From Candidatus Iainarchaeum sp. (GTDB taxonomy: Archaea; Iainarchaeota; Iainarchaeia; Iainarchaeales; CSSED10-239), in assembly GCA_028700905.1 (NCBI GenBank), contig JAQVRT010000040.1, positions 1 to 6,116 on the forward strand: 6,116 nucleotides of DNA, given 5' to 3'. This document shows, in pieces, positions 1 to 6,116 of the stretch. The notes beneath the pieces were generated by a model that worked only from the letters and a program-made list of their open reading frames with translations, was not told the origin of the DNA and did not search any database. Within the stretch, counting starts at the first letter, position 1, and every line of letters begins with the position of its first letter. Made by a program: the position numbers and the translations under genes.

Positions 1-678
1 CACATAAAAGTAGTCCTTAATAAAGCAAAAGAACATCATGGAACCTTTAGAACACAAGATTTAGAGTGGATAGGTGGAGAAAATAGAAAAGAAACAATTA
101 TCCAGGAAAACGGATGTTATTTAAAAACAGATGTTGAGAAAGTATTTTATTCAACAAGACTTGCAACAGAAAGAAAAAGAATAGCCTCTTTAGTCTTAGA
201 AAATGAAACAATAGGAGTTTTCTTTGCAGGAGTTGGTCCTTTTTCAATAGCAATTGCAAAACTTGCAAAACCAAAAGAAATTATTTCCATTGAACTTAAC
301 CCTATTGGTGTTAAATATATGGAAGAAAATATTTTAAAAAATCAAATGGAAAAAATAATAACACCAATAGAAGGAGATGTTAAAGAAATATCTAAAAGAT
401 ATCCAAACTATTTTGATAGAATACCAATGCCACTTCCAAAATCTGCAGAAAATTTTTTAGATGATGCAATTTTTTCAATAAAAGATCAAGGAATAATACA
501 CATTTATAATTTTGTATCTAAAAATGAACCATTTAAAGAAATTGAAAAAATAATAAAAGAAAAAGAAAAAAAGAATAATTGTAAGATAGAAATAATATTT
601 AAGAAAGTTATTAGAAGTTTTTCTCAAACCACTGTACAGATTGTAATGGATTTAAAAATATCTAAAGATCTTTCTTAA
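1..678 (+). CDS. trm5: tRNA (guanine37-N1)-methyltransferase Trm5 / Taw2 family (Met-10+ class I SAM methyltransferase), 5'-truncated by the window edge
   Basis: Frame 1 is open from base 1 to the TAA at 676-678, so the ORF-track ATG at 319 is internal. Translating 1-318 gives ...KVFYSTRLATERKRI..., then IGVFFAGVGPFSIAIAK (SAM motif I). ISIELNP, GDVKEI and DRIPMPLPKSAENFL (NLP-type catalytic loop) follow, in the canonical Trm5/TYW2 order. Trm5 and Taw2 cannot be separated by eye. Confidence 0.85.
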   Translation, partial: HIKVVLNKAKEHHGTFRTQDLEWIGGENRKETIIQENGCYLKTDVEKVFYSTRLATERKRIASLVLENETIGVFFAGVGPFSIAIAKLAKPKEIISIELNPIGVKYMEENILKNQMEKIITPIEGDVKEISKRYPNYFDRIPMPLPKSAENFLDDAIFSIKDQGIIHIYNFVSKNEPFKEIEKIIKEKEKKNNCKIEIIFKKVIRSFSQTTVQIVMDLKISKDLS

Positions 679-3031
679 GTTTAGGTTTCTTTTTAGAAGT
701 TTTAGATTTAGAAACTTCTTTTGGTTTTACTTCTTCTTTTTTCTTTGAAGGTTTAATTTTTGAAACTATTTTTTTAACACTTTTAATAGAATCACTTTTT
801 TCATTTTCAGAAAGAAGTTTCTTTCTTTTCTCAAGTTCAATTATTTGTTTATCAATAATTTTCTTTTCAAACTCAACTGAAGAAGTATCATAAACCATTT
901 TAGATTTAGAATCCTTTAAAACATCTTTATTTTTTATTCTTTCAAGCTCTAAAAGATATTTATCTCTCATTTCTTTATAAGTGAAAGGACTTATTTTTCC
1001 TTCAATTAATTTTTCATCTAAATAACCTATTTGTTTAATTATTCCTTCCTTTGAATGATGTTTTTTAAATCTTTCAACTTCAAAGACAATTGTTAAAACC
1101 ATTAAAAACAAAGCTGCAACAAATAAATAAAGATAAACATCTTTCTTCTCTTTTGAATAAATATAGATGTTTTGAGAAGAAGTTTCTTTTTCTTTACTTA
1201 CATTTTCATCTTCATCAGAAACAATAATTACAGAGCCTTGATTTGAAGAACTAATATCAATGACTAAAGTTTCAAGATCTGTATTTAAATAATAATCAAG
1301 AACTATTATTTCTGTTTCATAAAGATAATGTGCAAAATTAAGTATAGAGTTTGCAACATTTAATTGAGATTTTGCTTTTTCTTCATCTTTATTTTTATAG
1401 AAATCATGAGCATTTTTATAATAAATACCATGATCTAAGAAAGTTTTAGACCAAACATAATTTTCATTATTCATTGCACTTTGATTTCTTAAATCTTTAG
1501 TTAATTGATCATATTTAATATTAAAATCATTTAATGTAAAATTATTTTTACTGTCTTCTTGTGTTTTTATAACAGCTAAAGCAGTTGCTGAATCATAAAG
1601 TGAAGTTACATACCATCCTCTTTGATAATTAATCTTTGCAGCATTAAGTCTTCTTTTTAAATCTTCAGTATCTGCTATGTTTGGAGCAACTAAAATTAAT
1701 TGATTTTCAACAGATATAATGCTTTCTTGTGCTTTTTCTTTAAAAAAGTTAGATTCTACAAACTTTAAATCATTATTTGTTGTAATTGATGCATCTAAAA
1801 AATCATTTGCAATTTCTGTCCATGCTAAAGCATAAGCATATTCTTGTATTTTTGAAAAATTATTTATAGTTTGCTTTTCTTTTAAAGATTCAACTTTATC
1901 TCTTGCCCAAGTAATTCTTTGTCTTCCACCAACACACCATTCTAAATATTCAATTGAACAGTTGTTAGATCTATTTTCTGTTAAAGTTATTTTTTCATCA
2001 AGTTCAGAAACTCTAAGATCAAAAATAATTGAAGAATCTGCTAAAATTGATGGGTTTGTAATAATTTCTTCAACAGAGATTATATTAATATAAGCTAAAA
2101 AAGAATTATTTGCTGCTGAATAAAAATAATTATTTTCATAAAACTTTTTTGAATTTTCAACAAGTTCTTCAGAATAAGTAACTGTTGATAAAAGTGTATC
2201 TAGAACATCTAAATCTTTTATGTTAGAGGAAGATATTTTAGAATTAATTGAAGATAATTTTTCTTCAGTATTAAGAATATATTCTTCAGTTATTTTTTTT
2301 AAAGGCTCGACTGCTTTAGAATATTCAATTTTATTATAAACAAAATCATCTACTTTTTCTTCTTGAATAGAATTTACATCAATTGAAGAAACATCTCTAA
2401 AAGCATAATCTAGAACATCATCAATAGTTGATACTTCAATAATCTTTAAACCCCATTCATTATAAGCATGCTCAATTAAATCAACTTGTTTAATTTCATC
2501 ATCTTCATTAATCACTTGAGATCTATTTCCTTGAGGTATGAAAAATAAATCAATACCTATTTCAGAAGCTTTTTTTGCTTTATAATATATTCCACCAACA
2601 TCTCCAATATATCCGTCAATTGAAATTGAACCAGTCATACTTACATTTTCAGGAACAGGAGTATCTTTAAACATTGAAATTATTAAAAGAGCCATTGCAC
2701 CACCTGCAGATGGACCATCTATAGTGTGTGCATTTGAAGTAATATCAACTGTAAAATCATACTCTTGCTTAATATCTTCTTTTATAACTGAATCTGCAAC
2801 TGCAATTGCATTTTTAAAAGATTCTTGTGTTGAAGAACCTACTATTGATTCATCTATTGAAGAATATATTTTTCCAGTACCAGGTATAATTTTTACATTT
2901 AACTGTGCATCTTTTGCACTTGTTTCACCAGATACTGCAAAAATCTTCATATTAGCATCAGAAACTAATGCGAAAAGATTAGGCATTAAAAGTATTAAAA
3001 ATAATAATATTGCAATTGATTTAATTTTCAT
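662..3031 (-). CDS. Membrane-anchored, ATPase-less Lon-like S16 serine protease with a large extracytoplasmic domain and a basic cytoplasmic tail
   Basis: Complete 789-aa ORF (ATG 3029-3031, TAG 662-664). N-terminal hydrophobic signal/anchor is MKIKSIAILLFLILLMPNLFALVSDA. Lon proteolytic-domain motifs are TIDGPSAGGAMALL (catalytic Ser108) and DVGGIYYKAKKASEIGIDLFFIPQGN (Lys151, 43 residues after the Ser, the spacing I recall for E. coli Lon). No Walker A/B motif occurs anywhere. A second TM helix spans aa 632-651 and is followed by ERFKKHHSK (positive-inside). Confidence 0.85.
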   Translation of the reverse strand: MKIKSIAILLFLILLMPNLFALVSDANMKIFAVSGETSAKDAQLNVKIIPGTGKIYSSIDESIVGSSTQESFKNAIAVADSVIKEDIKQEYDFTVDITSNAHTIDGPSAGGAMALLIISMFKDTPVPENVSMTGSISIDGYIGDVGGIYYKAKKASEIGIDLFFIPQGNRSQVINEDDEIKQVDLIEHAYNEWGLKIIEVSTIDDVLDYAFRDVSSIDVNSIQEEKVDDFVYNKIEYSKAVEPLKKITEEYILNTEEKLSSINSKISSSNIKDLDVLDTLLSTVTYSEELVENSKKFYENNYFYSAANNSFLAYINIISVEEIITNPSILADSSIIFDLRVSELDEKITLTENRSNNCSIEYLEWCVGGRQRITWARDKVESLKEKQTINNFSKIQEYAYALAWTEIANDFLDASITTNNDLKFVESNFFKEKAQESIISVENQLILVAPNIADTEDLKRRLNAAKINYQRGWYVTSLYDSATALAVIKTQEDSKNNFTLNDFNIKYDQLTKDLRNQSAMNNENYVWSKTFLDHGIYYKNAHDFYKNKDEEKAKSQLNVANSILNFAHYLYETEIIVLDYYLNTDLETLVIDISSSNQGSVIIVSDEDENVSKEKETSSQNIYIYSKEKKDVYLYLFVAALFLMVLTIVFEVERFKKHHSKEGIIKQIGYLDEKLIEGKISPFTYKEMRDKYLLELERIKNKDVLKDSKSKMVYDTSSVEFEKKIIDKQIIELEKRKKLLSENEKSDSIKSVKKIVSKIKPSKKKEEVKPKEVSKSKTSKKKPKLKKDL
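695..722 (+). terminator. Possible trm5 terminator: 8-bp hairpin followed by a T-run, embedded in the convergent gene
   Basis: agaagttt (695-702) pairs perfectly with aaacttct (712-719) across a 9-nt loop, followed by T-run 719-722. A further oligo-T (tttcttttt, 686-694) lies 8 nt after the trm5 stop. The T-richness is partly forced by Lys (AAA/AAG) codons of the opposite-strand gene, so this may be incidental. Confidence 0.25.
935..1036 (-). other. SHOCT-like short helical motif in the cytoplasmic tail
   Basis: aa 666-699, KQIGYLDEKLIEGKISPFTYKEMRDKYLLELERI, resembles the SHOCT pattern (L..L...G.I+..eY...+..LL). The rest of the tail (aa 700-789) is Lys/Glu/Ser-rich and ends KKKPKLKKDL. This is motif-level resemblance only. 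Confidence 0.35.
1079..1138 (-). other. Transmembrane helix (aa 632-651, VYLYLFVAALFLMVLTIVFE) separating the ectodomain from the cytoplasmic tail
   Basis: About 20 consecutive hydrophobic residues. Acidic/polar sequence lies before them and the basic cluster RFKKHHSK after them. Confidence 0.75.
2396..2950 (-). other. Lon_C-type (S16) proteolytic domain with an intact Ser-Lys dyad
   Basis: Covers aa ~28-212 of the 789-aa ORF. The Ser108 codon is tct (revcomp of 2708-2710) inside GPSAG. The Lys151 codon is aaa (revcomp of 2579-2581) inside GGIYYKAKKA. Both were verified against the nucleotide sequence. Confidence 0.8.
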
Positions 3032-3095: not shown

Positions 3096-3560
3096 TTACT
3101 TTTTCTTGTTTTTGAAAAGAAGATTAAATTTTTTAGTTGTAGAAAGAATATTTTTCCTTCCTTTTTTTTCAATTGCAATTAAATCTAGTTCTTTAAGTAT
3201 TTTTAAGTCTTCAAAAGGTCTTTTCTTACTTATTTTTGATTGTTCAACAGGAGCATTTAAAGAAATAAAAGCTAAAGTTTTAAGTTCAGATTTTGAAAGA
3301 GTTGTTCCTGTTGCAAAAATATTAAAAGAATGGAATTCTGGTTTTACAACAATCTCTAATTTTTTATTATCTTTAATAATTGAAAGAGAAGTTTTTCTTT
3401 TATTATAATCATTAATTAAATCATCTATCTGAATATCAATTATTTTTTTATCAATATTTGGAAATGAAGAATAAATTTTTGAAATTAAAGTTGATTTTGG
3501 AGATAGAAACAAAATAGCTTCTATTGCTTGTTTTAAATAATCACTACTTGTTTGGTCCAT
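3096..3560 (-). CDS. scpB: ScpB-like segregation and condensation protein B (short form, two winged-helix domains)
   Basis: Complete 154-aa ORF. The N-terminus, LKQAIEAILFLSPKSTLISKI, matches the ScpB signature (EAlLFas.ePls). The second half, LSKSELKTLAFISLNAPVEQSKISKKR...LKELDLIAIEKKGRKNILSTTKKFNLLF, matches the second ScpB wHTH (Ls.aalEtLaiIAY.QPit..eI..iR ... L.e.glI...gr....y.tT..Fl..F). Confidence 0.7.
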   Translation of the reverse strand: MDQTSSDYLKQAIEAILFLSPKSTLISKIYSSFPNIDKKIIDIQIDDLINDYNKRKTSLSIIKDNKKLEIVVKPEFHSFNIFATGTTLSKSELKTLAFISLNAPVEQSKISKKRPFEDLKILKELDLIAIEKKGRKNILSTTKKFNLLFKNKKK

Positions 3561-3579: not shown

Positions 3580-4353
3580 TTATTCATTTATTGCAACTAA
3601 TGTTTCATTTCTTTCAGGCATAGTATAAGTAAAAGTTTCTTGATTAGAAATTCTACTTGAAGTACTTCTCTCTACCCAATAAATATTATTATTAGATTCT
3701 ACTGATGAAATCATTTTTATAGAAACAATAACATTTTCTCCTGCTTGATATTCTCCATCTCCAGATAAAGTAGCTGAAACACCAGTTTCATTTTCTAAAG
3801 TTAAAGTATAAGTTTCTGGCTCAGAAGATTCTGATTGAAAAGTTGCAGTTACATTTCTTGCTTGAGTCATGGAAACTGTACAAGTAGATCGAGATCCTGA
3901 ACAAGCACCTGACCATTCTATAAAATCATAACCTGGTATTCGATTTATAATTAAAGTAACTGAAGTTCCTGAAGAATAATTTTGAGAACAATCAGCTCCA
4001 CAATTAATACCTGGAGGATTTGAAGTTACAGTTCCATTTCCAGAAACATTAACAGTTAATGTATAATTTTCAGGATCTGGTTCATCTGGTTCATCTGGTT
4101 CATCTGGATTAGGATCATCTCCTCCAGGATTAGGATTAATATTATCTATTTCTTCAACTTGAGAAGAATCATTTAAATCTTTAATAAAACCATCAACTGT
4201 TGAATCTATTCCTTCATTAATTTTATCTGATTGATTTACTTTCTCATTTGAAAAATTAATAAAGGTTGTAGCTAGAACAATTGTTCCTAAGACTAAAATA
4301 CCAACAATAATTACCATCTCTAAAGATACTTGAGCTTTTTTACTTTGAATCAT
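3580..4353 (-). CDS. Archaeal type IV pilin-like protein (class III signal peptide) fused to InlB B-repeat adhesin-type domains
   Basis: Complete 257-aa ORF. It starts MIQSKKA|QVSLEMVIIVGILVLGTIVLATTF: a short basic leader, Ala at -1, Gln +1, Ser +3, Glu +5, then a hydrophobic helix (DUF361/QxSxE-type prepilin signal). A Pro/Asp/Glu linker follows at aa 72-96. Next is a divergent InlB B-repeat (aa 97-172, GINCGADCS...[26 protein letters not shown]). Last is a classic Listeria-Bacteroides-type repeat (aa 181-255, YTLTL...FTYTMPERNETLVA). Confidence 0.8.
   Translation of the reverse strand: MIQSKKAQVSLEMVIIVGILVLGTIVLATTFINFSNEKVNQSDKINEGIDSTVDGFIKDLNDSSQVEEIDNINPNPGGDDPNPDEPDEPDEPDPENYTLTVNVSGNGTVTSNPPGINCGADCSQNYSSGTSVTLIINRIPGYDFIEWSGACSGSRSTCTVSMTQARNVTATFQSESSEPETYTLTLENETGVSATLSGDGEYQAGENVIVSIKMISSVESNNNIYWVERSTSSRISNQETFTYTMPERNETLVAINE
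3838..4057 (-). repeat. B-repeat cassette copy in the pilin-like gene, homologous at DNA level to 5811-6030
   Basis: Gap-free alignment at a constant offset of 1973 nt. A hand count gives 184/220 identical positions. Perfect blocks are 3838-3886 = 5811-5859 (49 nt) and 3951-3983 = 5924-5956 (33 nt). Confidence 0.9.
4075..4107 (-). repeat. Perfect 9-nt tandem repeat (atctggttc x3.7) encoding (PDE)n in the pilin-like linker
   Basis: Units lie at 4075-4083, 4084-4092 and 4093-4101, with a partial unit at 4102-4107. The minus-strand translation is PDEPDEPDEPD. Confidence 0.95.
4261..4353 (-). other. Class III (prepilin-type) signal peptide plus hydrophobic N-terminal helix; predicted cleavage between Ala7 and Gln8
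   Basis: KKA|QVSLE has a basic residue at -2, a small residue at -1 and Glu at +5, then about 22 hydrophobic residues. This is the pattern recognised by archaeal PibD/FlaK/EppA-type peptidases. Confidence 0.7.
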
Positions 4354-4376
4354 ATTTTAACCACATTTTTATAAAA

Positions 4377-6116
4377 TTATTCTAATCCACCATCAATAAT
4401 AGTCCAACCATAGTCATTAATTAATTTATTTCTAGAATCTACAGCAGAATTATCATAATTTACTGCTGTTGCTCCTAATGTTACATTAGTTTTTAAATTA
4501 TCTAAACTACTCCATTTAATTAAAAGTTTAGTATAATTTACAGTAGATAAAGCATAATCAAACATATGATCCATATCAATTACATTTGAAACATTCCAAG
4601 AACTAATATCTTGATCAAAACAAATATCACTAACACTAAAAAAACACATAAACATCCTATTCATATTTGTAACATTTGAAACATCCCACATACTTATATC
4701 TTGATTAAATGAATAATTATTATAAAACATAGAAGACATATCAGTTACATTTGAAACATCCCAATTATTCAATGGTTGATTAAATCTAGTACATCTAAAC
4801 ATTGAAGACATATTAGTTACATTTGAAACATCCCAATTATTTATAGAAGTATTAGTCCATGAAAATACACCATTATTTGGAGGATTACTTACACTACAAT
4901 TTTGATAACCACTAAAAGTACCTGCTAAATTTGTAACTCCATTTAGATCAGGAACATCAGTTGCAGTTACAACTAAATTTGTAGCTCCAGAGAAATAATA
5001 TCCATTATTTCCGAATTTTAAATTACCCCATTGACTAATTTCTGTTAATTTTAATTTATCTCCAGAATTATTAAACCTAAAACCTTCAATAAAACCAGTT
5101 ATTACAACAGTGTAAACTCCTGGTGCTGAATATGTATGAGTTTTATCAGGATCACTATAACTTGTAACCTCAGATGTAGTTCCATCTCCCCAATAAACTT
5201 TAAAATTATAATTATTACTATAATAAGAAGCAGAATCTAAAGGTAATGTAATTTGATTTGCACTGGAAGATCCAGTACTAATTTTTGTAGTATCCCATTT
5301 AGATATAAATGCATCTGAAGTAGGTATAAAATTTGCAGTTAAATTCACATTACTTGAAGGCATTGTATAACTAAATGAAGGATCTGTACTAACTACAGTA
5401 CCATTTTGATCAATCCAATTTACATAAGAAAATTCAGCAGTAGAAGTTATAGATATTTTTGCAACATCTCCAGGATTATAATTTCCTGCACCATTTAAAC
5501 TAATATGTACTGAATCTGGATTTTCAATTAAATTTAAATTATAAGCAACAGGCAAACTAAAAGTTGCAGTTACATTTTTAACTTCAGTCATAGAAACAGA
5601 ACAACTAATTTGAGATCCAGAACAAGCACCTGACCATCCTTCAAAAACATATCCTGAAACTGGAGTTGCATTTAATTGAACAGATTGTTGATCAGGAAAA
5701 GTTGCAGAACAGTTTGTTTGTGATTCTAAACAATTAATTCCAGAAGGATAAGTTTCAACAGTTCCTCCAATTGTTTTAGTTAAATTTAAAGTATAACTAT
5801 TTGGAAGATTAAAAGTTGCAGTTACATTTCTTGCTTGAGTCATGGAAACTGTACAAGTAAGATTAGTTCCAGAACAAGCACCTGACCATCCACCAAAACT
5901 ATGACCTGTAACAGGATTTGCAGTTAAAGTAACTGAAGTTCCTGAAGAATAATTTTCAGAACAATCAGAACCACAATTAATACCTAAAGGACTTGAAGTC
6001 ACAGTTCCATTTCCCGCACCACTTAAAGATACATTTAAAGTATAAGTTGATGGAGCTGTTGATGAAAAATTTGCAATTAAAGAAGTATTTGAATTTAAAG
6101 TAAAAGTATATGGATT
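4377..6116 (-). CDS. Large secreted/surface protein, 5'-truncated by the window: InlB B-repeats plus a C-terminal DUF285/BspA-like 26-residue-repeat domain
   Basis: The reading frame stays open from 6002 to the window edge at 6116 ([49 protein letters not shown]...). The ORF-track start at 6002 is therefore an internal GTG in the middle of a repeat domain. Domains: divergent B-repeat 1 (5811-6044), divergent B-repeat 2 (5559-5795), classic B-repeat (5328-5543), then FISKWDT...[10 protein letters not shown]...[15 protein letters not shown]. Four W[DN]VSNV(T/I)(N/D)MxxMF...FNQDIS units follow, the signature of the bacterial surface protein 26-residue repeat (DUF285). Stop codon at 4377-4379. 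Confidence 0.9.
4551..4841 (-). repeat. In-frame tandem coding repeats (24-30 aa period) of the DUF285/BspA-like domain
   Basis: acatttgaaacat[ct]cca (minus strand W-D/N-V-S-N-V) recurs at 4581, 4671, 4746 and 4818, giving spacings of 90, 75 and 72 nt. A 27-nt perfect repeat links 4743-4769 and 4815-4841. Confidence 0.9.
5811..6030 (-). repeat. B-repeat cassette copy in the large surface-protein gene, homologous at DNA level to 3838-4057
   Basis: Same alignment as above. A third, more diverged copy of the same domain lies at 5559-5795 and shares the terminal aatgtaactgcaactttt on the minus strand. Confidence 0.9.

Follow-up and report, generated by a model that had tools for sequence, protein, structure and literature searches.

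The pilin-like genes and their shared module

The window analysed here, the entire 6.1-kb contig JAQVRT010000040.1 (6116 nt) of a metagenome-assembled genome (MAG), encodes on its reverse strand a small and a large pilin-like gene that lie next to each other and share a module of 221 nt, present once in the small gene (copy 1) and twice in the large gene (R1 and R2; Table 1). The subject of this work is the patchy way in which these copies resemble each other and their counterparts in closely related genomes. W denotes the window's own sequence, and L-numbers (L001, L002 etc.) denote the loci with which it was compared. This comparison set comprised 22 loci, obtained through an exact look-up of the ScpB protein and through homologues of the small protein; exact look-ups of the small protein itself and of a Lon-like protein encoded in the window gave no match in the contig collection. 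The flanks of W match loci from several assemblies at 97-100% identity; one of these is CP045477.1, the complete genome of Candidatus (Ca.) Forterrea multitransposorum (Diapherotrites/DPANN), a tiny, host-dependent symbiotic archaeon, and it was also matched by a conserved 27-mer of the module. The source organism appears to be Ca. Forterrea multitransposorum, a conspecific or a near relative. In all 22 loci, the pilin-like array is located between scpA and scpB, in the order of a pilin-like gene for a protein of 127 amino acids (aa), one or two large pilin-like genes (730-856 aa) and the small gene (251-263 aa). As genes for two kleisin-associated condensin subunits, scpA and scpB are unusual surroundings for a variable surface-protein island.

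Table 1 Positions of genes, modules and segments, given for the window (W) unless another locus is named
Feature	Position	Strand	Remark
Small pilin-like adhesin gene (putative)	3580-4353	-	Open reading frame (ORF), 257 aa
Large pilin-like adhesin gene (putative)	4377-6116	-	5' end beyond contig end
Module copy 1 (small gene)	3838-4058	-	185/221 identical to 5811-6031
Module R1, copy 2 (large gene)	5811-6031	-	Probable donor of the 48-49-nt tract
Module R2 (large gene)	5559-5779	-	Older paralogue, 61% identical to copy 1
49-nt perfect block	3838-3886 = 5811-5859	-	Probable short gene-conversion tract, R1 to small gene
33-nt perfect block	3951-3983 = 5924-5956	-	Kept in nearly all module copies of all strains
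N-terminal part of small gene	4174-4353	-	Nearest L011 allele, 3/180 differences; L002 8/180; others 13-16/180
Linker end and first module half	3951-4076	-	126 nt, 100% identical to L002-type allele
Segment S2 (loop IINRIPGYDFIEWS)	within 3887-3950	-	Nearest L011 allele, 3/42 differences; R1 15/42; L002 19/42
Segment S4 (last 48 nt of module)	3838-3885	-	0/48 differences to R1 of W, L002 and L015
3' part of small gene	3583-3950 (~370 nt)	-	L011-type haplotype with private changes; hypervariable between strains
9-nt tandem repeat (GAACCAGAT)	4075-4107	-	Linker; 3.7 copies, 100% matches (TRF)
DUF285/PARCEL repeat region of large gene	~4400-5050 (L002 3470-4230)	-	Second strain-hypervariable segment, with repeat-number indels
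scpB	3096-3560		
scpA	~5729-7265 in L001/L011/L015		scpB after the array
Lon-like gene	662-3031	-	789-aa membrane protein; sole recognised domain Lon C-terminal protease PF05362; Lys-rich C-terminal tail
Trm5/TYW2-type methyltransferase gene	319-678	+	Runs off contig start

The small protein, which is identical to the NCBI protein PHX47_03630 (Candidatus ainarchaeum sp.), consists of a class III signal peptide with a hydrophobic N-terminus, an EPD linker, a divergent InlB B-repeat (Flg_new_2) and a classic B-repeat-like domain. Both genes carry InlB-type B-repeat domains, for which the hidden Markov model of the Pfam family PF18998 (Flg_new_2) scored above its gathering cutoff of 23.6 bits: the small protein reached 57.4 bits (E = 1.5e-15) over residues 97-175, the large protein 106 bits over three stretches, and orthologues 148-249 bits. 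The part of the large gene that lies in the window comprises the end of a B-repeat, R1, R2, a classic B-repeat, a PKD-like region and DUF285/PARCEL repeats. Its full-length orthologues of 730 aa (L015/L017, the closest) and 856 aa (L002) carry the same pilin-like N-terminus, KKAQVSLEM. A preliminary description of the window had set a pilin-like gene against a 'giant' surface-protein gene; judged by the closest orthologue, the large protein has about 730 aa, and it too is pilin-like, since its N-terminus has the class III signal peptide module of the small protein. In some large-gene orthologues, a Lys-rich stretch of 25 aa (MKKEVKKIKSKKIIKSKKVKK...) appears to precede the class III signal motif (L015 7779-7860, L011 7686-7765, L001 6908-6985), depending on which start codon is used; the large gene of L002 begins directly at MNKSKKAQ.

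Prepilin-type N-termini were recognised by a FlaFind-type pattern, [KR][GA][ALIFQMVED][ILMVTAS] followed by a hydrophobic stretch of about 20 aa. All four array proteins tested match this archaeal class III signal peptide pattern: each has K-A/Q-V-S-L-E (the slash marks the predicted cut) followed by about 22 hydrophobic residues, with Glu at +5 after the cut, KAQVS at residues 5-6 (or 31) and a continuation of the form QVSLEM(V/I/M)II(V/I)G(V/I)L(V/I)LG... The Pfam family PF04021 (Class_IIIsignal) scored 15.6-19.6 bits in five array proteins (17.5 bits in the small protein), below its cutoff of 23.7 bits, and a search of NCBIfam gave no match to a pilin model. Neither a prepilin peptidase nor an assembly ATPase or platform protein, nor any other gene of type IV pilus (T4P) machinery, is found within 10 kb of the locus. 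We regard the small and large proteins as putative adhesins or minor pilins of the type IV pilin-like kind, as suggested by these sequence features.

In the AlphaFold2 model of the small protein, two beta domains (residues 95-257) have a predicted local distance difference test score (pLDDT) above 90, and the N-terminal 79 residues are modelled poorly. The variable module segments S2 and S3 map to a strand-loop-strand at residues 136-157 of this model. A Foldseek search of the model against the PDB returned weak matches to Ig-like repeats of Gram-positive pilins and adhesins (TM score ~0.2), which say just 'beta-rich surface repeat'. The linker is encoded by the 9-nt unit GAACCAGAT (E-P-D on the coding strand), whose copy number varies among alleles by whole 9-nt indels, giving proteins of 251-263 aa; such changes would fit a stalk, between the pilin N-terminus and the B-repeat domains, that varies in length by slippage. 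From the large-gene stop codon to the small-gene ATG there are just 23 nt (4354-4376), with an archaeal TATA-box-like sequence (TTTATAAA), unremarkable at 25% GC, about 15-22 nt upstream of this ATG.

Copy 1 and R1 align without gaps at an offset of 1973 nt, and the roughly 184/220 identities of the preliminary description became 185/221 (3838-4058 vs 5811-6031) in our recount. The observation itself was thus borne out. The perfect blocks of 49 and 33 nt are present, and the mismatches are clustered, with 0/48 in the last segment of the module vs 38/180 elsewhere (Fisher P = 1e-4). The adjacent classic B-repeats (3589-3813 vs 5328-5543) have diverged to about 58% identity (131/225), and R2 is likewise less similar to copy 1 than R1 is. 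Synonymous identity between copy 1 and R1 goes beyond what codon usage explains: with an expectation built on 20 background genes of the same species, 47 of the 50 degenerate codons for identical amino acids are the same, vs 28.0 expected (Poisson-binomial P = 3.7e-10), and codon usage by itself would make the 16 codons of the 49-nt block all agree with a probability of 2e-4. The shared Ser codon TCC, singled out earlier as unusual, accounts for 3/380 Ser codons (0.8%) in the background genes. The conserved blocks encode core beta-strands of the Flg_new_2 fold. Each locus has two to three module copies of this type. Exact scans with conserved 27-mers gave one genome match (the complete 840-kb genome) and five metagenome stretches, all at the scpA-scpB locus; no reservoir of extra copies emerged from these exact scans, which would miss diverged copies.

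Mosaic alleles in a near-identical background

The Lon-like gene, with a dS (synonymous divergence) of 0.034-0.046 and a dN (non-synonymous divergence) of 0.005 between strains, provides the background against which the small gene stands out. Between W and L002, dS is 0.035 in the Lon-like gene but 0.50 in the 3' part of the small gene, where dN is 0.46 and identity falls to 64-77% amid 97-100%. The allelic divergence thus exceeds the background more than 10-fold at synonymous and non-synonymous sites alike, and dN/dS is close to 1 where the small gene varies. Given a dS of 0.50 against a background of 0.035, the small-gene alleles are old divergent haplotypes that were moved into near-identical genomes, which is the signature of recombination rather than recent point mutation. 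Eight contigs carry the L002-type allele without a single base change, and four carry the L011-type allele in the same way; these contigs come from several samples. R1 is 92-99% conserved between strains, and the identity between the small-gene module and R1 ranges from 72 to 83% depending on the strain.

Six small-gene alleles (W and five others from near-identical genomes) were codon-aligned, and the module was compared by segment in twelve copies, half of them from small genes and half of them R1. The comparison of related genomes proposed in the preliminary description revealed a divergence along the module that is not uniform and has a tract structure. The N-terminal part of the W allele is closest to the L011 allele (Table 1). 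In the linker end and the first half of the module, W follows the L002 allele: segment S1 shows 0/114 differences to it and 16/114 to R1, and positions 4064-3958 show 0/107 differences to L002 and 13/107 to L011. Downstream of this, S2 is again nearest to L011. S4, in which W is indistinguishable from R1, differs from R1 at 5 sites in the small-gene allele of L001, at 7 in that of L011 and at 15-16 in those of L002, L015 and L016. At the 3' end (3583-3749), W differs from the L011 allele at 1/167 sites and from L002 at 63/164, and L010 is 100% identical to W over 3600-3725. The nearest relatives therefore conflict from segment to segment, with zero-divergence tracts inside diverged sequence, which is the pattern by which interparalogue conversion and mosaicism are recognised.

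Fisher tests on the segment contrasts gave P values of 6e-19, 1e-4 and 1.3e-4, the last for S4 vs the flanking L011-like sequence, and a run test with site permutation found an unbroken run of 51 concordant polymorphic sites between W and L002 (P ≤ 0.0005). In the GENECONV-like site-permutation analysis, the pair formed by the small and the large gene of W was absent from the top pairs because few sites in S4 are polymorphic; the case for a conversion tract in S4 rests on the comparison of alleles. In this comparison, the exact 49-nt match between small and large gene was seen in the W strain alone. The longest such matches in four other strains measure 33, 29, 24 and 18 nt, and inside the S4 segment they do not exceed 21 nt. 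The two perfect blocks, which the preliminary description had treated together as a feature of the gene pair, thus part ways: the 49-nt block is specific to the W lineage, whereas the 33-nt block occurs in almost all copies of all strains and is where the W allele crosses over from L002-type to L011-type sequence. Its view of the small-gene C-terminus as a mosaic is right insofar as the allele is a true mosaic with an R1-type tract of 48-49 nt, but most of the mosaic follows other alleles (L002 and L011 types) and not R1. The breakpoints sit at conserved blocks, including TCTV, that encode core strands.

Patches of R1 type are also found in other strains. The small gene of L001 carries one (SDCSENYSS, 29 nt), that of L011 has PSTYTL as well as SSNPGINC, the latter identical to the L001-type R1, and in L015 the small gene and R1 have a private GINCGT in common. 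Mosaicism extends to the R1 copies themselves, the 3' half of R1 in L011_766 being identical to that of R1 in L008_717. Distances between small-gene modules and R1, compared within and between strains, showed no preference for the resident R1 and do not identify the donor genome. The W-specific junction GTTACTTTAATTATAAATCGAATACCAGG had no match when JGI metagenomes were scanned for it.

Strain-specific variation extends to the large gene. Its DUF285/PARCEL region is 63-77% identical to that of L002, with many gaps, vs 99-100% over 5100-5700 and in the remainder of the gene, and contains an array with a 72-nt period at 4672-4841 (repeat families D2/D3); the number of repeats in this region differs between the 730-aa and 856-aa large proteins. 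When the large-gene loci L001 6908-9202, L011 7686-9986, L002 1853-4423, L015 7779-9971 and L008 3-2156 were compared, the genes were found to have an identical N-terminal third (about 280 aa) followed by entirely different C-terminal modules depending on the strain, namely a Fib_succ_major domain, DUF285 repeats or a long B-repeat array that ends in a Cys-containing domain. Strains of the L002/L008 type have one additional large gene. This arrangement points to whole-module shuffling between strains within the scpA-scpB island.

Origin of the patchy identity

We consider it likely that the patchy identity results from ordinary homologous recombination together with short gene-conversion tracts, both between gene copies and between strains. 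Based on the segment comparison, we propose three superimposed layers: (i) an old paralogous relationship between the modules, which would be represented by the divergence of about 14% in the first module half; (ii) allelic homologous recombination among co-existing strains, with crossovers in short conserved blocks for core strands such as the 33-nt block; and (iii) short-tract, non-reciprocal conversion between paralogous modules, through which R1 would have overwritten the last 48-49 nt of the small-gene module in the W lineage. The direction of this transfer, from R1 to the small gene, is suggested by parsimony. According to this scenario, much of the mosaicism would be strain-to-strain exchange of alleles rather than intragenomic cassette transfer, and the machinery would be that of general, RadA-dependent recombination, possibly acting after DNA uptake. 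The recombinant products are probably retained by diversifying selection, in keeping with the dN/dS value given above; diversifying or frequency-dependent selection on host-contact proteins may keep the mosaics.

Genome-wide localised variation in Ca. Forterrea multitransposorum has been explained by homologous recombination, and its large extracellular proteins have been suggested as mediators of host interaction (Probst & Banfield 2018, PMC5905446). The recombination proposed here would agree with the former conclusion, and the populations described there are alike in that their near-identical genomes are interrupted by highly divergent islands with sharp borders. In its main text, that study describes no scpA-scpB pilin-like array, no conversion between paralogues and no sub-domain mosaicism (PMC5905446).

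Several points weigh against a combination of homologous recombination and gene conversion. The W allele is a single observation, seen in one 6.1-kb MAG contig only, and the mosaic is that of assembled consensus sequences. The S4 tract is supported by 5-7 informative sites relative to the nearest alleles, and an unsampled small-gene allele with an R1-like end could have served as the donor in place of R1. In the site-permutation test, uneven rates of change along the domain act as a confounder. Moreover, 'independent' contigs (JGI, ENA, Logan) may in several cases be re-assemblies of the same reads.

The main caveat is assembly chimerism, which concerns one junction. The contig would then be a chimeric consensus of co-occurring strains and/or paralogues that were joined at shared k-mers in the repeat, an explanation that we regard as unlikely. 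Several allele types do occur in the same sample series, the switch between L002-type and L011-type sequence falls within a stretch common to both alleles, and de novo assemblies of a repeat-containing gene have been found wrong in this organism (Probst & Banfield, PMC5905446). Contigs also tend to end at the critical positions: the Logan (k=31) contigs L006, L007 and L009 start in the 33-nt block (their positions 1-30 correspond to ~3951-3980 of the window), L014 is an 889-nt fragment with the small gene only, and the W contig itself ends inside the large gene. However, a 31-mer support map revealed private W sequence across 3716-3980 that is in no sampled allele, and W is not a splice of sampled parents. 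To create the R1 patch, the assembly would have had to switch twice within about 60 nt at overlaps of at most 21 nt, and the 3' junction of the patch (GCAACTTTTCAATCA) is found in neither R1 nor the L011 allele. The 3' end beside scpB is independently supported by L010, and mosaic patches are also present in alleles from contigs of 170-700 kb and from the curated complete genome.

The preliminary description had likened the locus to the pilE/pilS-type exchange of cassettes, which is known from Neisseria. In a programmed system of this kind (or one like vlsE/msp2), the small gene would be an expression site that is converted at high frequency by mini-cassettes from the repeat-rich large gene or genes, with conserved blocks as guides. 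The likeness to pilE/pilS consists of a pilin-like gene, of conserved blocks that flank and alternate with variable mini-segments, and of an apparent non-reciprocal transfer in which R1 is unchanged and the small gene altered; R1 is conserved while the small-gene module varies, as donor and acceptor would. In addition, the small and large genes are adjacent and co-oriented, and small-gene alleles contain at least four lineage-specific patches of R1 type. The organisation of the locus nevertheless makes programmed variation quite improbable. There are no silent, promoterless or 5'-truncated copies: every module copy is part of a full ORF that has its own start codon and class III signal peptide. 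One to three donor copies are available, with two to three module copies per locus and one exact 27-mer match in the complete genome. A G-quadruplex (G4) motif of the form (G3+N1-7)x4 is absent from both strands of the 6116 nt, the + strand having a single GGG run, and the locus differs from pilE/pilS in lacking a G4 or small RNA element. Most of the mosaic is allelic and not derived from a paralogue, the variable loop IINRIPGYDFIE is without a donor in the large genes, and the consensus alleles are stable across samples, as the eight L002-type and four L011-type contigs illustrate.

Rejected as even less probable is the simple local duplication that the preliminary description had named as its alternative, in which a recently duplicated module would have diverged by point mutation, with purifying selection on the core strands and positive selection on the loops, without recombination. 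It would be in line with the concentration of mismatches where the proteins differ, with the conserved blocks being core beta-strands of Flg_new_2, and with the strong codon bias of a genome with 25% GC. Yet the five other strains all have the two genes with the two modules, which places the duplication before their separation, the identity between small-gene module and R1 varies with the strain, and different segments show zero differences to different partners. The excess of identical codons over the codon-usage expectation, including a shared codon of 0.8% usage, also speaks against it, as does the dS of the 3' part, which lies beyond what point mutation could have produced since the strains split. 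Diversity-generating retroelements (DGRs), with their pairs of template and variable repeats, are common in DPANN archaea, and two repeats of about 220 nt with clustered mismatches in a surface-protein gene of such an archaeon call them to mind, but a DGR was rejected on the mismatch spectrum, which shows no adenine specificity (mismatches at A: 6/36 in R1, 15/36 in the small gene), and on the absence of a reverse transcriptase among genes with Pfam annotation in the 10 kb to either side of the locus in L001, L011 and L015, both copies being coding besides.

Related systems and the surroundings of the array

Gene conversion and mosaic alleles are well known from bacterial surface adhesins, and conversion between full-length adhesin paralogues is exemplified by babA/babB/babC of Helicobacter pylori and the opa genes of Neisseria. 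The recombination proposed for the scpA-scpB array resembles these cases in that donor and acceptor are complete, potentially expressed surface-protein genes of one genome, and in that short non-reciprocal tracts would produce chimeric adhesins through general homologous recombination, with mosaics visible across strains. In contrast to them, the piece exchanged here is a sub-domain part of a repeated B-repeat domain, the proteins have an archaeal class III signal peptide, and the organism is a DPANN archaeon.

Diversification of pili and adhesins at the population level, by recombination or selection, has likewise been reported for other host-associated microbes. In group A Streptococcus, pilus and fibril genes are exchanged by recombination (PMC11078000), although these are sortase pili and whole genes or alleles are exchanged. 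In Nanoarchaeota, surface and T4P proteins have an elevated density of non-synonymous single-nucleotide polymorphisms (PMC6142677), a measure of polymorphism density and not of mosaic tracts. Archaeal proteins with class III signal peptides have been described as minor pilins or adhesins (Makarova, Koonin & Albers 2016, PMC4858521). The array proteins share with them the prepilin-type N-terminal signal with its hydrophobic helix, the non-pilin extracellular domains and the clustering of genes, but their C-terminal modules (Flg_new_2, DUF285/PARCEL and Fib_succ_major) are typical of bacterial surface proteins, and the nearest 10 kb are free of T4P machinery genes. Within the open-access literature searched, neither this locus nor mosaicism below the domain level in pilin-like adhesins of DPANN archaea turned out to be described.

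DPANN archaea need physical contact with their hosts, and very little is known about the evolution of their attachment proteins. The locus provides a base-resolved example in which bacterial-type B-repeat modules of putative pilin-like adhesins appear to be reshuffled below the domain level, both between strains and between neighbouring paralogues. For this organism, inferences of homologous recombination had previously been genome-wide only. The module and its conserved crossover blocks offer a specific target for read-level population genetics. The locus also serves as a caution for strain analyses that rely on MAGs, given that contigs break, and may become chimeric, precisely in this region. 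A further-reaching and rather doubtful idea is that the scpA-scpB island is a dedicated adhesin-diversification locus of an episymbiotic DPANN archaeon, in which co-oriented, full-length pilin-like genes would serve each other as donors of sub-domain mini-cassettes, guided by conserved blocks of 20-50 nt, at a rate above that of background recombination. If so, cells could retune their attachment to the host, and the island would be an archaeal counterpart of bacterial pilin and adhesin antigenic variation that manages without silent cassettes.

Scans of the window for Rfam families and tRNAs gave no matches. The remaining genes of the window are the Lon-like gene, whose gene call is 15 codons shorter (774 aa) in L006 and L010, and the convergent Trm5/TYW2-type methyltransferase gene; the 3' ends of the two overlap by 17 nt.

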